Shown in pieces: positions 6,050-54,961 of a stretch of 64,000 bases of DNA. The stretch comes from Candidatus Dormiibacterota bacterium. Lineage in GTDB: Bacteria > Chloroflexota > Dormibacteria > Aeolococcales > Aeolococcaceae. Each line of letters begins with the position of its first letter. Positions within the stretch are counted from its first letter, which is position 1. The notes under the pieces are model-generated. The model was not told where the DNA came from. It did no database searches and was given only the letters and a program-made list of their open reading frames with translations. Location of the stretch: NCBI GenBank assembly GCA_963709585.1, contig CAVPXI010000006.1:160001-224000 (forward strand), written 5' to 3'. Made by a program: the position numbers and the translations under genes.

Positions 6050-6980
6050 CCGGTCGGCGCGCCCGAGTCCTCGATCGTCGCGGCGAACGGTCCCGACGAG
6101 GTTGGTGGCATACGGCGGCGAGGCCGACGGCTCGGTCCATGTCCACGCTGGGGTCGTCGGGCAGCGCCCAGACGATATCCGAGGCCAGCCACTCCCTCGT
6201 GGCCGCAACCGGAGCCGGGGCTGGGGCTGCAGGCGCAGCCGATGGTTCGGGCTCGACAGCGCGCTTGATCCGCTCGACGGCGCCCGGGGCGACTCTTCGA
6301 ACCAGCGCGGCTGGGACTCGAATCAGTTGCGACCGGGAGGGCCGAGCCGGGAGTGGTTCGGCCGGCATCACCGCCGGCGGCTCCGTGGCCATCGCCCCCT
6401 CAGGGAAGACACGGACCATGAGGCTGACCTGGTCGAAGACGGTGCGGAGCAGCGCGATCAGTGCCGGCGGCGTGAACTCCATGAGGTGGGATCGGGCGAG
6501 GAGATGTCCGTCCGGGACGTGGTCGATCGACCACAGCCGGTTCGGGGTGCCGACAAACGCGACGCCGCCGTCATTGAGCAACTCCGCCATCCCTCGGACG
6601 AAGGCGAATGGATCGACAACGTGTTCGAGGACCTCGGAGCTCGCAACCAGGTCATATGACCTGGGCGCGCAGACGTCCGGCAACGGCTTCATCAGGTCCG
6701 CGACGAAGAATCGAACGCCGGGTGCGCCGAAGTTTTCGGTGGCATACTCGATGGCCGCGGGGGAGTTGTCGATGCCGTCGACGGTCGCGCCGGCCCGAGC
6801 CAGCAGCGCGGCGCCGTAGCCCGTCCCGCAGCCGAAGTCAAGCGCGCGCATCCCGTCGGTGACAAGGTTCTCGGCGATCCACTCGTAGACGCCCTCGTGG
6901 CCTGCCGATGTGATGTCTCTCGTCGCCGACGGAACGTATCTGTCCTGCCCGTCGGCGGTCGCGAGATCAACTTCGGTCAT
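6036..6980 (-). CDS. Class I SAM-dependent methyltransferase
   Basis: LDFGCGTGYG, SSEVLEHV, GTPN. Confidence 0.9.
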   Translation of the reverse strand: MTEVDLATADGQDRYVPSATRDITSAGHEGVYEWIAENLVTDGMRALDFGCGTGYGAALLARAGATVDGIDNSPAAIEYATENFGAPGVRFFVADLMKPLPDVCAPRSYDLVASSEVLEHVVDPFAFVRGMAELLNDGGVAFVGTPNRLWSIDHVPDGHLLARSHLMEFTPPALIALLRTVFDQVSLMVRVFPEGAMATEPPAVMPAEPLPARPSRSQLIRVPAALVRRVAPGAVERIKRAVEPEPSAAPAAPAPAPVAATREWLASDIVWALPDDPSVDMDRAVGLAAVCHQPRRDRSPRRSRTRARRPVSDA

Positions 6981-7141
6981 GGCGCCGGAAGCTTACCTGC
7001 CGAGGTGCGTCGTCGAAGGTTGTCCTGGCTACTATTGGCAGGCTCGGCTGGCAGACACCGCGGCCATACGCGGCTCTCGGTCGCTGGGGGTATCACCCTC
7101 GACGTCAGGGAGGCCGGCGACAAGGCCAAAACCCCTTACAT

Positions 7142-7218
7142 CCCAGGGTAGCCAAGTGGTCAAGGCAGCGGTCTGTAAAACCGTGTACCGATGGTTCGAA
7201 CTCCATCCCCTGGGACCA
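7142..7218 (+). tRNA. tRNA-Tyr(GTA), archaeal/eukaryal type (C1:G72, A73, short variable loop)
   Basis: Acceptor CCCAGGG/CCCTGGG plus A-CCA; D arm GCC..GGC; anticodon arm GCGGT-CTGTAAA-ACCGT; 5-nt variable loop GTACC; T arm GATGG-TTCGAACT-CCATC (8-nt loop). Confidence 0.9.
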
Positions 7219-7273
7219 CCACATACCCCGAGACGACTCCTGCGCCGTCCGGCCGGTGCGGAGTCCGCGGTTA

Positions 7274-7849
7274 CTAGGGTCCGCCGTCGTATTGGACCTC
7301 TTGCGCACTGTTGCGGACGTAGAGGAAGACGTGTTGCCCAGGAGGGACATCGCCTCCTGCGAACTGCCCCGTCGCGGGATCGCGCAGAAGTATCTGGCTG
7401 CCCCCGATGAGCTTTCGGATGTGCGCGATTCCGCCGATCGTCCATGTGACGATGGCGCCCGCGTGCGCGTGGCTCAATGCGGCGAGCGGGCCCGTGGCAC
7501 TCCCCGCAAACGCATACCACCCGGTGCCACCCGGACCCGTGAAGTTCCAGTAGCAGATGGTGTTCCCGGCGGGGACGTAGCTCTGCTCGTCGCCGCACGA
7601 CGCCGTGAACGCGACGTTGATTTCCAGCGACGCGATGACGATGTGGCCGGCAACGGGAAACGCTGTGGGAATAGGCGTTGGGGTTGGAGCCGGTGTCGGG
7701 GTCGGAGTCGGAGCAGCGGTGGCTGTCGGAGTGGGAGTTGGCGTCGGGGTTGCGGTTGGCGTCGCCGAGGGAGTCGTGCTGCTCGCCCCGCAGCCCGCGA
7801 GGATCATCGCGCCACCGACTGCAAGTCCCTGGATTGCGCGCCCGTTCAT
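7274..7849 (-). CDS. Lipoprotein with Pro/Thr linker and degenerate sortase-like domain
   Basis: Lipobox LAGC, (PT)n linker, GHIVIASLEIN...GPGGTGWYAFAGS...GAIVTW sortase-like pattern. Confidence 0.65.
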   Translation of the reverse strand: MNGRAIQGLAVGGAMILAGCGASSTTPSATPTATPTPTPTPTATAAPTPTPTPAPTPTPIPTAFPVAGHIVIASLEINVAFTASCGDEQSYVPAGNTICYWNFTGPGGTGWYAFAGSATGPLAALSHAHAGAIVTWTIGGIAHIRKLIGGSQILLRDPATGQFAGGDVPPGQHVFLYVRNSAQEVQYDGGP

Positions 7850-17172: not shown

Positions 17173-17180
17173 CCAACACG

Positions 17181-17252
17181 TACCCGCACGGGGAGTTGAA
17201 CCCCGGTTACCACCTTGAAAGGGTGGTGTCCTGACCGCTAGACGATGCGGGC
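17181..17252 (-). tRNA. tRNA-Glu(TTC)
   Basis: GCCCGCATCGTCTAGCGGTCAGGACACCACCCTTTCAAGGTGGTAACCGGGGTTCAACTCCCCGTGCGGGTA; CCA not encoded. Confidence 0.95.
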
Positions 17253-53989: not shown

Positions 53990-54066
53990 GCCCCGTTCGT
54001 CTAGTGGCCCAGGACACCGCCCTCTCAAGGCGGAGACCATCGGTTCGAATCCGATACGGGGTACCA
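53990..54066 (+). tRNA. tRNA-Glu(CTC)
   Basis: GCCCCGT acceptor, CCGCC-CTCTCAA-GGCGG anticodon arm, GTTCGAATC, encoded CCA. Confidence 0.95.
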
Positions 54067-54238: not shown

Positions 54239-54961
54239 GTGGGTGCCGAGGAGTTACCAACGTTGGACAAGCTGAAGCCGTGGCAGCGGCTCTCACGGAA
54301 ACAGTCGGGCGACGCCGGGTCGGCCGACGGGGACCATGACGGTCTGGGCAAGTGCCTGGACGGCGAATGCTCCAAGCCTGCGACCTGTCGCTGCACGTAT
54401 GTCGACCGCCGTCAGGTGAGGTGCGGCACGACCTGGTGCGATGAGCACAGCAGGATCGTCCTCGGCCTTCCATACTGCCGCCGCCACGCGACGGTTGCCC
54501 CCTCTCTGTCGAACGGCTTCTTCACCCACATGCTCCCCGACGTCGAGAACCGCGCGCCGTCCCTCGCCACCTGGGTCGGCGGCGAACTGGACACTGCGGT
54601 GCGCATCGCGCTCACCGCCGACGCCCCCCACAAGGACGCCTACGTGGTCAGCGGTGCGGTGCGTCCGGTGCGCGTCCCGGGAAGCACGATGCCCGTCTGG
54701 CTCCGCTCATGGACGCTCGTCGACAGCACGGGCGTCCTTCAGCACGTGTCCATCGAGGTCGATGAGGAGGACGATCGCGCCGTCGTGGTGCGCGTCGCCG
54801 GCGAGCCCATGGGGCGCCACCAGCCGCCGTGGATCGGCCGCCCACGCACCGAGTCGATCGAACCCGAGCTCGACGCCGCGGCGCGACAGGCGTTCCGCAT
54901 CACGGTGATGCACGACATCGAGCTCGGATTGCTGGGTGCTCGCATGGAAGTCGCTTCCTGA
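54239..54961 (+). CDS. Hypothetical protein with N-terminal Cys/His zinc finger
   Basis: CLDGEC....CRC.YVD....CGTTWCDEH......PYCRRH. Confidence 0.7.
   Translation: MGAEELPTLDKLKPWQRLSRKQSGDAGSADGDHDGLGKCLDGECSKPATCRCTYVDRRQVRCGTTWCDEHSRIVLGLPYCRRHATVAPSLSNGFFTHMLPDVENRAPSLATWVGGELDTAVRIALTADAPHKDAYVVSGAVRPVRVPGSTMPVWLRSWTLVDSTGVLQHVSIEVDEEDDRAVVVRVAGEPMGRHQPPWIGRPRTESIEPELDAAARQAFRITVMHDIELGLLGARMEVAS

Follow-up and report, generated by a model that had tools for sequence, protein, structure and literature searches.

How does a soil bacterium of high guanine-plus-cytosine (GC) content come to carry a tyrosine tRNA with the identity elements of archaea and eukaryotes? Tyrosine is a textbook case of domain-specific tRNA recognition: bacterial tRNA-Tyr has a G1:C72 pair and a long variable arm, which bacterial tyrosyl-tRNA synthetase (TyrRS) reads through its S4-like domain, whereas tRNA-Tyr of archaea and eukaryotes has C1:G72 and a short arm. 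The orthogonal pair most used in genetic code expansion rests on this rule, and the M. jannaschii TyrRS/tRNA-Tyr is the standard pair for that purpose in E. coli. The stretch of DNA considered here (the window, 64,000 nucleotides on contig C6 of a Candidatus Dormiibacterota genome that we call G000) contains, at positions 7142–7218 of the plus strand, a tRNA-Tyr gene of the archaeal/eukaryal kind. A first-pass annotation had read it as the sign that a high-GC bacterium outside the candidate phyla radiation (CPR) has switched to an archaeal-type TyrRS/tRNA pair, possibly by replacement across domains.

The explanation that we favour as a whole, with a probability of about 0.88, is that this gene encodes the only tRNA-Tyr of its host, of archaeal identity, that its partner is an archaeal-type TyrRS, that the native pair has been lost and that the new one arrived as a cassette. 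The window tRNA would then be the working tyrosine tRNA of the cell, charged by the TyrRS encoded on contig C14, and the lineage would have given up both its native TyrRS and its G1:C72 long-arm tRNA. The replacement would most likely have come as two genes, with tRNA-Tyr directly upstream of tyrS; by bringing its own tRNA along, a synthetase with foreign identity rules could take over. Many related genera still have such a cassette in one piece, as do some CPR bacteria and at least one further high-GC lineage; in the host genus its two genes would have separated later.

The gene itself is a type I tRNA-Tyr(GTA) with the archaeal identity set, as supported by ARAGORN, Rfam, conservation in the family and covariation. 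ARAGORN calls it at exactly 7142–7218(+), and the Rfam tRNA family RF00005 matches the same interval with 63.3 bits (E 2e-13, with the region searched alone), well above the gathering threshold of 29 bits. Across 16 related tRNAs, 99.7% of cells are paired, both sides change in 12 of 20 pairs, and none of 500 shuffles scores as high as the real alignment; together with the Rfam score and the ARAGORN call, this covariation places the gene within RF00005. All the features listed in the first-pass annotation are present. The acceptor strands are CCCAGGG (7142–7148, with C1 at 7142) and CCCTGGG (7208–7214, with G72 at 7214); C1 is found in 16/16 aligned relatives, and 1:72 is C:G in all 16. The discriminator A73 (7215) is invariant in the alignment of related tRNAs, and the encoded CCA end (7216–7218) is present in most relatives' copies too. 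The anticodon GTA (7175–7177) sits in the loop CTGTAAA, with A37, and the variable loop is the 5-nucleotide GTACC (7185–7189), without a variable arm in the sequence or in the Rfam alignment. The D-arm (7151–7166) has a 3-bp stem, GCC/GGC, and a 10-nucleotide loop; it is nearly identical to the D-arm of tRNA-Cys in the same genome and unlike that of Thermococcus tRNA-Tyr. The gene thus carries C1:G72, A73, G34 U35 A36 and a short variable region, the complete archaeal/eukaryal tyrosine identity set, and lacks the canonical bacterial G1:C72 and long variable arm. As a side point on method, an Rfam scan of the whole 64-kb window with default speed filters at the gathering threshold missed this 63-bit tRNA-Tyr, which a small-region scan recovers, and fast-mode Rfam tRNA inventories may undercount.

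One element is irregular: the T-loop as assembled, TTCGAACT (7195–7202), has 8 nucleotides. The first-pass suspicion of an indel error here proved right, since one A of 7199/7200 is an assembly insertion. We compared contigs (not raw reads) from four soil-metagenome runs over 6900–7500, and all omit the base at 7199, at full depth in each: X1 (133/133, three contigs), X2 (41.8/41.8, three contigs), X4 (3.93/3.93, one contig spanning 6929–7222) and X6 (25.9/25.9, one contig). One X1 contig without differences over 7200–7500 likewise has a single A at the T-loop site. Relatives agree: among 30 loci (one of which, L041, comes from the unpublished genome G042), the T-loop has 7 nucleotides in 25 (TTCGACT in 21, TTCAACT in two, TTCGAAT in two) and 8 in five, including the window. 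The 8-nucleotide loop is an assembly error and the true loop has 7 nucleotides. Within 7142–7218 the contigs of the four runs show no other differing letters, and therefore the anticodon, which the earlier annotation had wished to see verified, stands as GTA, as do positions 1:72 and 73. Owing to the 8-nucleotide loop, a pattern scan of the genus genomes missed both G000 and G074; its non-tRNA matches were about as many as in a reversed control. Elsewhere on contig C6, outside the window at 54303–54372, ARAGORN reports a tRNA with a two-base 'anticodon' (tt) in a 6-nucleotide loop, most likely a tRNA-Lys(TTT) minus one T of a homopolymer, which fits an assembly prone to single-base indels.

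The host is a non-CPR Dormibacteria soil bacterium. Its source genome G000 is a metagenome-assembled genome (MAG) of 3.52 Mb in 24 contigs, with 67% GC and an estimated completeness of 88.8%, and contig C6 (337 kb) has the same GC content as the genome. The runs holding the window stretch are soil and peat metagenomes. The best 120 homologues of its TyrRS are 61–96% identical and, where named, belong to Candidatus Dormibacteraeota/Dormibacteria, a phylum that NCBI taxonomy places within Bacillati; the host family falls within a phylum sample of more than 80 families. Genome size, GC content, named homologues and taxonomy all set this host outside the CPR. The genome has bacterial hallmarks, including a transfer-messenger RNA and a bacterial RpoB, and its tryptophan system is of the ordinary kind: the tryptophanyl-tRNA synthetase (TrpRS) passes the trpS model (TIGR00233, 306 bits), and tRNA-Trp has A1 and U72-G73, the pattern listed as bacterial tryptophan identity in a table of a recent review (PMC9976931). 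ARAGORN finds 49 tRNA genes besides the transfer-messenger RNA, and the window copy is the single tRNA-Tyr among them.

G000 has two class Ib synthetase genes, side by side on contig C14, of which one encodes the TrpRS and the other (C14:309292–310419) a TyrRS of 375 residues, the only TyrRS that profile searches find in the genome. This enzyme passes the archaeal-type model NF006330 with 395.2 bits against a cut-off of 220, and fails the tyrS model TIGR00234 (best 82.6–88.2 bits against a cut-off of 113.8). As a control on NF006330, only the four archaea among 14 control genomes pass. Pfam detects PF00579 alone, the catalytic and anticodon-binding family, over residues 32–351 of 375, and finds no S4 domain, the very absence that the first-pass annotation had proposed to look for. 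The closest solved structure, 2cyc, also has 375 residues and aligns end to end (residues 5–362, E 4e-118, 398 bits) with a hand-counted identity of about 53%; its source organism is Pyrococcus horikoshii. Both enzymes have the KMSKS motif and an HLGT variant of HIGH. Unlike the G000 enzyme, 2cyc comes from an archaeal host, and its relatives form a separate Thermococci clade. P. horikoshii is named among the archaeal TyrRS structures in the same review (PMC9976931). Other archaeal/eukaryal TyrRS structures match as well, including that of M. jannaschii (1j1u, E 4e-45). Protein-atlas placement was uninformative, giving only archaeal-leaning TyrRS clusters; the few cluster representatives with a name comprise a Brassica TyrRS 2, a Daviesbacteria protein, one sequence called just 'archaeon' and one from Micrarchaeota. 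The sole TyrRS of G000 is an archaeal-type enzyme without an S4-like domain. With a single tRNA-Tyr and a single TyrRS in G000, the window tRNA is predicted to be charged by this TyrRS, which, by analogy with archaeal TyrRS, would read the archaeal identity features. Alongside, tyrS and the bacterial-type trpS are convergent and lie 4 nucleotides apart (C14:309292–311596, or L002:1408–3712); in other genomes of the genus the opposite strand carries, no more than about 0.3 kb from tyrS, a weak match like that of the G000 TrpRS.

The pair is a property of the lineage and not of one assembly. We denote the host family and genus f1 and g1, the sister family f2, and f2 to f5 four other families of the class; family tallies include the unpublished genomes G027, G032, G036, G042, G066, G092 and G121. 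The archaeal-type TyrRS is present in 24/24 other g1 genomes and above cut-off in 0/16 genomes of f2. A sample of the class has it in 57 of 63 f1 genomes and none of the 187 from f2 to f5 (0/35, 0/43, 0/98 and 0/11, respectively); among 400 other genomes sampled across the phylum, 15/17 from f1 carry it and 0/383 from more than 80 other families do. A strong match to the tRNA-Tyr (E ≤ 1e-15) occurs in 85/101 family genomes. Its presence there, together with the enzyme in all 24 genus genomes, therefore argues that the pair is not a binning artefact. Genera g5, g7, g14 and g19, with every one of their sampled members, account for 11 of the 16 family genomes without a strong tRNA match, and the other five are incomplete genomes (52–86%) of genera otherwise positive. 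The same four genera lack the archaeal-type TyrRS, and it is they that yield bacterial enzymes above the TIGR00234 cut-off: 1/1 in g5, 1/1 in g7, 1/1 in g14 and 6/8 in g19, against 0/25 in g1 and none in other genera apart from one g12 genome. Archaeal-type TyrRS and short tRNA thus co-occur in 18 of 22 sampled genera of the family, and the other four keep a native bacterial TyrRS. With one tRNA-Tyr among 49 tRNA genes, one TyrRS of archaeal type and no enzyme passing TIGR00234 in 25/25 genomes of the genus, the switch proposed in the first-pass annotation is borne out. No genome with both tyrosine pairs was seen among the 101 sampled from the family. The apparent exception, G119 of g12, was considered as a coexisting pair and rejected as contamination: the contig with its bacterial TyrRS measures 3.4 kb, the bin is 6% contaminated, and the enzyme shares no more than 44% identity with members of the class and sits on a long branch outside the class clade.

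The ancestral state can be read from the genera that differ. The bacterial TyrRS of g5, g14 and g19 form one clade (100/99) beside f2 and so are native. Native tRNA-Tyr genes were retrieved by RF00005 scan from one f2 and one g19 genome only; both have G1:C72, A73 and a variable arm of 12–14 nucleotides. Sister lineages thus keep a G1:C72 long-arm tRNA with a native TyrRS, and the window's lineage therefore appears to have replaced both partners. The two kinds of pair share UAY decoding, the anticodon and A73; they differ in that the native TyrRS of f2 and of g5, g7, g14 and g19 passes TIGR00234, and in the native tRNA with its different first pair and arm, its G37 and its lack of an encoded CCA. 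In the native genes (L057:11–95 and L067:10–93) the anticodon loop is CTGTAGA; the replacement tRNA has A37 and an encoded CCA.

Gene order in relatives suggests how the new pair may have travelled. Comparison of coordinates shows 16 genomes, from seven genera, in which the tRNA precedes tyrS on the same strand by 25–1467 nucleotides. The genera are g22 (8/8 genomes with both coordinates), g23, g10, g11, g20, g21 and g24; g13 has a copy of only the 3′ half of the tRNA just before tyrS, and the two genes are apart in g1, g12, g25, g6 and g16. Among the best 80 of 581 matches to a CPR-like query alignment searched against species-representative genomes, in which archaea are under-sampled, tRNA-Tyr is upstream of tyrS in 13/34 high-GC bacterial, 4/27 low-GC (CPR) bacterial and 0/19 archaeal loci, a survey that took in 1.5 kb of flank. 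As loci with this gene order are scattered over the TyrRS tree, the older arrangement is probably adjacency. L109, a CPR locus labelled Peribacteria, has a T-box-like leader (1115–1376; RF00230, 71.4 bits, below the gathering threshold of 93; E 9e-14) immediately before its tRNA-Tyr (1412–1487), which is followed by an archaeal-type tyrS. The Dormibacteria genera share with this cassette a tRNA-Tyr directly upstream of tyrS, but no T-box was found in their loci: RF00230 gave no match at E ≤ 10 in window positions 6900–7500, and none at E ≤ 1 before the tRNA in four Dormibacteria cassette loci or L137, or before tyrS of G000 (L002). T-box control of the Dormibacteria pair, considered as a candidate, was accordingly dropped for the loci searched. 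Separately, partial tRNA-Tyr copies (5′ or 3′ halves) occur 2–36 kb from the full gene in relatives, at G003 C1:895651–895688, G083 C24:105933–105983, G068 C2:550668–550709, G060 C2:549528–549566 and G050 C16:919538–919586, the last of them directly before tyrS; these copies may be scars of integrating elements or of cassette break-up.

Within the family, the history is less simple than one arrival followed by descent. Plain RpoB identity to G000 failed to order the genera, and an RpoB tree was built (35 rows, 1175 columns, careful search), which resolves f1 as (g25, ((g5, g19), (g14, g13, main clade))). On this tree the archaeal type is found in g25, g13 and the main clade, and the bacterial type in g5, g19 and g14. 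The TyrRS tree branches in the order g25, then g13, then the rest, mirroring the species order (one row, G042, is unpublished). The patchwork fits either a cassette that moved two or three times among relatives, or a single gain with coexisting pairs followed by loss. A broader proposal, to which we lend somewhat less than even credence, is that tRNA-Tyr plus tyrS forms a self-sufficient mobile identity cassette that has moved among CPR bacteria, Dormibacteria and at least four other high-GC lineages. As the two pairs would not cross-react, a recipient could run both for a long time and then lose either, and such long coexistence would explain the patchwork within one family.

Did the tRNA arrive with the enzyme, or was it made on the spot? 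A short tRNA-Tyr could have been produced locally after a lone archaeal-type TyrRS arrived, from a duplicated tRNA-Cys(GCA) or similar type I tRNA whose anticodon changed from GCA to GTA and whose acceptor was remodelled to C1:G72 and A73. The tRNA body, judged on sequence, does appear bacterial in style rather than archaeal. The tRNA-Cys of G000 is the best non-tyrosine match to the window tRNA (55/73), above the CPR short tRNA-Tyr (54 and 52 of 73) and Thermococcus tRNA-Tyr (50/73). Over nucleotides 7–41 it matches at 32 of 35, with an identical D-stem and a nearly identical D-loop. The native long-arm tRNA-Tyr scores 55 with gaps, and tRNA-Gln is also among the closest. At position 37 the window tRNA has A, as do CPR tRNAs and the usual UNN-reading tRNAs of bacteria; the tRNA-Tyr of Thermococcus and the native one of Dormibacteria have G there. 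That a resident tRNA can be adapted has a possible precedent, too: G300, a high-GC genome outside the class with a TyrRS of the same clade, has a long-variable-arm tRNA-Tyr with C1:G72 (L157:1469–1551), some CPR bacteria keep such a tRNA too, and the simplest account of these is a flip of the first pair, so that the G300 tRNA may be an adapted resident. The resemblance to tRNA-Cys, however, may be convergent, as the UNN-reading tRNAs of G000 have the same anticodon stem-loop pattern and this type of D-arm is found in its tRNA-Gln as well. Moreover, tRNA-Tyr genes almost the same as that of the window occur outside the class with TyrRS of the same clade (99/95), in G298 and G301 (66 and 67 of 73 identical), and the tRNA stands directly upstream of tyrS over much of the TyrRS tree; both observations fit joint transfer better. 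Because of the cassette and this cross-lineage identity, we favour import of the tRNA with its enzyme and consider local origin in this lineage unlikely. Local recruitment could nevertheless have happened once, in the first bacterial host.

The next question is whether the enzyme came straight from an archaeon. A transfer of TyrRS, with or without its tRNA, from a Thermococcus-like or DPANN donor into Dormibacteria, independent of the CPR enzymes, would agree with the best structure match, 2cyc, which scores above the best non-Dormibacteria representative (359 bits), and with the position of Thermococci and DPANN sequences just outside the bacterial TyrRS clade; in addition, several independent archaeal-to-CPR transfers were inferred by Mukai et al. 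(2017; PMC5370408). The trees nevertheless point to bacterial relatives. A quick tree, with 93 rows, groups all 35 high-GC bacterial sequences together (96) within a larger clade of 62 rows (97 SH-like approximate likelihood ratio test, SH-aLRT) whose remaining members are low-GC CPR bacteria and one Woesearchaeota, with Thermococci and other DPANN sequences outside it. A careful tree of 51 rows recovers the high-GC clade (now 15 sequences; 99/95, in 98% of bootstrap trees) and unites it with CPR lineages (87 ultrafast bootstrap, UFBoot/97 SH-aLRT), Thermococci forming a clade of their own (100/100). Furthermore, the absence of tRNA-Tyr beside tyrS in the 19 archaeal loci, against four CPR loci that have it, and the A37 and bacterial-style D-arm of the window tRNA, against G37 and a different D-arm in Thermococcus, argue against a direct archaeal source, which we regard as more doubtful still than local origin of the tRNA. 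The nearest relatives of the G000 TyrRS are, with moderate support, CPR bacterial versions (such as those of Daviesbacteria, Microgenomates, Peribacteria and WWE3), and the immediate donor was probably another bacterium. Of the cross-domain replacement suggested in the first-pass annotation, what stands is the archaeal type of the enzyme; a direct archaeal origin does not follow, given the CPR bacterial relatives and a tRNA body little like that of Thermococcus.

The high-GC TyrRS clade extends beyond Dormibacteria to G297–G301, whose RpoB is 53–71% identical to that of G000 (62–71% for G298 and G301) compared with 66–85% within the class; kinship of genomes reached through loci was judged by this RpoB identity. 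For G297, 9/13 relatives carry a TyrRS of this clade. The tRNA-Tyr has C1:G72 in all five genomes: in G297 the acceptor and anticodon arms are the same as in the window tRNA with a D-stem of 4 bp, and G299 has a more divergent short tRNA-Tyr. Several loci bear MAG labels ('uncultured Gammaproteobacteria', 'Actinomycetes', 'Saccharimonadales', 'Binatia', 'Planctomycetales') that clash with their GC content and tree position and on which we did not rely (L074–L076, L081, L082, L084, L110, L111, L118, L121, L126, L127, L130 and L140). These labels sit on binchicken/SMAG MAGs, and several such loci are identical to coded Dormibacteria genomes, for example L121 to G047.

The 8-nucleotide T-loop and the partial copies in relatives, as seen at integration sites, might suggest that the gene is a pseudo-tRNA, belongs to a mobile element or is contaminating archaeal DNA, and that the real tRNA-Tyr is missing from an incomplete assembly. 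This is very improbable: the long loop arose in assembly, compensatory changes accompany the conservation of the tRNA, its 337-kb contig has the genome's own GC and no integrase among the genes neighbouring the tRNA, and the tRNA matches the only TyrRS present, with a bacterial TyrRS in 0/25 genomes of the genus.

Several observations weigh against replacement by an imported cassette and have to be set beside the evidence for it. On the RpoB tree the trait needs two to three changes and not one. The link to CPR enzymes is moderate (87/97) and depends on the best 80 of 581 matches to a CPR-like query. The near-identity of the 5′ half of the tRNA to the host's own tRNA-Cys would also fit a Cys-like tRNA recruited locally. 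G000 itself lacks an intact cassette, and in four single- or few-contig genomes of the genus the two genes are 0.7–2.5 Mb apart. Finally, G000 is a MAG of 88.8% completeness in which a second tyrosine pair could in principle be unassembled, and the sole counter to this is that TIGR00234 passes in none of the 25 genus genomes.

The neighbours of the tRNA are a methyltransferase gene and an ABC (ATP-binding cassette) transporter gene. A weak match to an S-adenosylhomocysteine (SAH) riboswitch (RF01057) at 6996–7072(+), 70 nucleotides upstream of the tRNA, reaches 20.2 bits (E 0.22), under the gathering threshold of 37, and is probably due to chance. Two ordinary tRNA-Glu genes lie elsewhere in the window, at 17180–17252(−) and 53990–54066(+), with anticodons TTC and CTC and scores of 63.9 and 62.7 bits.

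Among engineered systems, the nearest parallel is the M. jannaschii pair, to which the Dormibacteria pair is similar in C1:G72, A73, the anticodon, the lack of a variable arm and a homologous enzyme. The Dormibacteria pair differs in having a 375-residue rather than a 306-residue TyrRS, and a tRNA with an encoded CCA, A37 and a bacterial-style D-arm, and it evolved inside bacteria. Among natural systems, this kind of pair is already known from the CPR: Mukai, Reynolds, Crnkovic and Soll (2017; Life 7:8, PMC5370408) described archaea/eukarya-type TyrRS with C1-G72 tRNA-Tyr there, presenting this as the first evidence of its kind from bacteria. That paper gives the pair only for Parcubacteria, Microgenomates, WS6 and WWE3 and describes an operon only for TrpRS-A, and a term search of it returns no occurrence of 'Chloroflexi' or 'non-CPR' (PMC5370408). 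The CPR and Dormibacteria pairs have in common a TyrRS without an S4-like domain and a C1-G72 tRNA-Tyr, which in some CPR bacteria also lacks a variable arm (Mukai et al., 2017). The hosts differ: the Dormibacteria are soil bacteria with genomes of 2–4 Mb and 63–72% GC, in which the pair is fixed over most of a family, with the native one persisting in sister genera. Passages of a 2023 review of tRNA identity (PMC9976931) and of a 2026 paper still state the bacterial-versus-archaeal tyrosine rule, and a full-text search, with subscription journals and supplements outside its scope, found no report of an archaeal tyrosine pair in Dormibacteria or other non-CPR bacteria. What is new is therefore not the kind of system but the unexpected host group, the cassette and the patchy distribution within a family.

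The CPR has been the only published bacterial exception to the tyrosine identity rule, and tiny symbiotic genomes and contact with DPANN archaea made it seem a special case. An archaeal-type pair fixed over most of a free-living, high-GC soil family with genomes of 2–4 Mb, and present in several other high-GC lineages, indicates that the barrier has been crossed in ordinary bacteria as well, and the intact tRNA-tyrS cassettes suggest how, with the synthetase bringing its own tRNA. From their identity elements, the pairs of this family are reasonable candidates for new orthogonal pairs, which may combine archaeal identity with prior adaptation to bacterial translation machinery and to moderate temperatures. 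Should the mobile cassette proposed above be real, natural evolution would have carried out repeatedly the 'orthogonal pair swap' that has been engineered in E. coli. For the family itself, sister genera that hold one or the other pair offer a natural experiment on the swapping of an essential decoding component.

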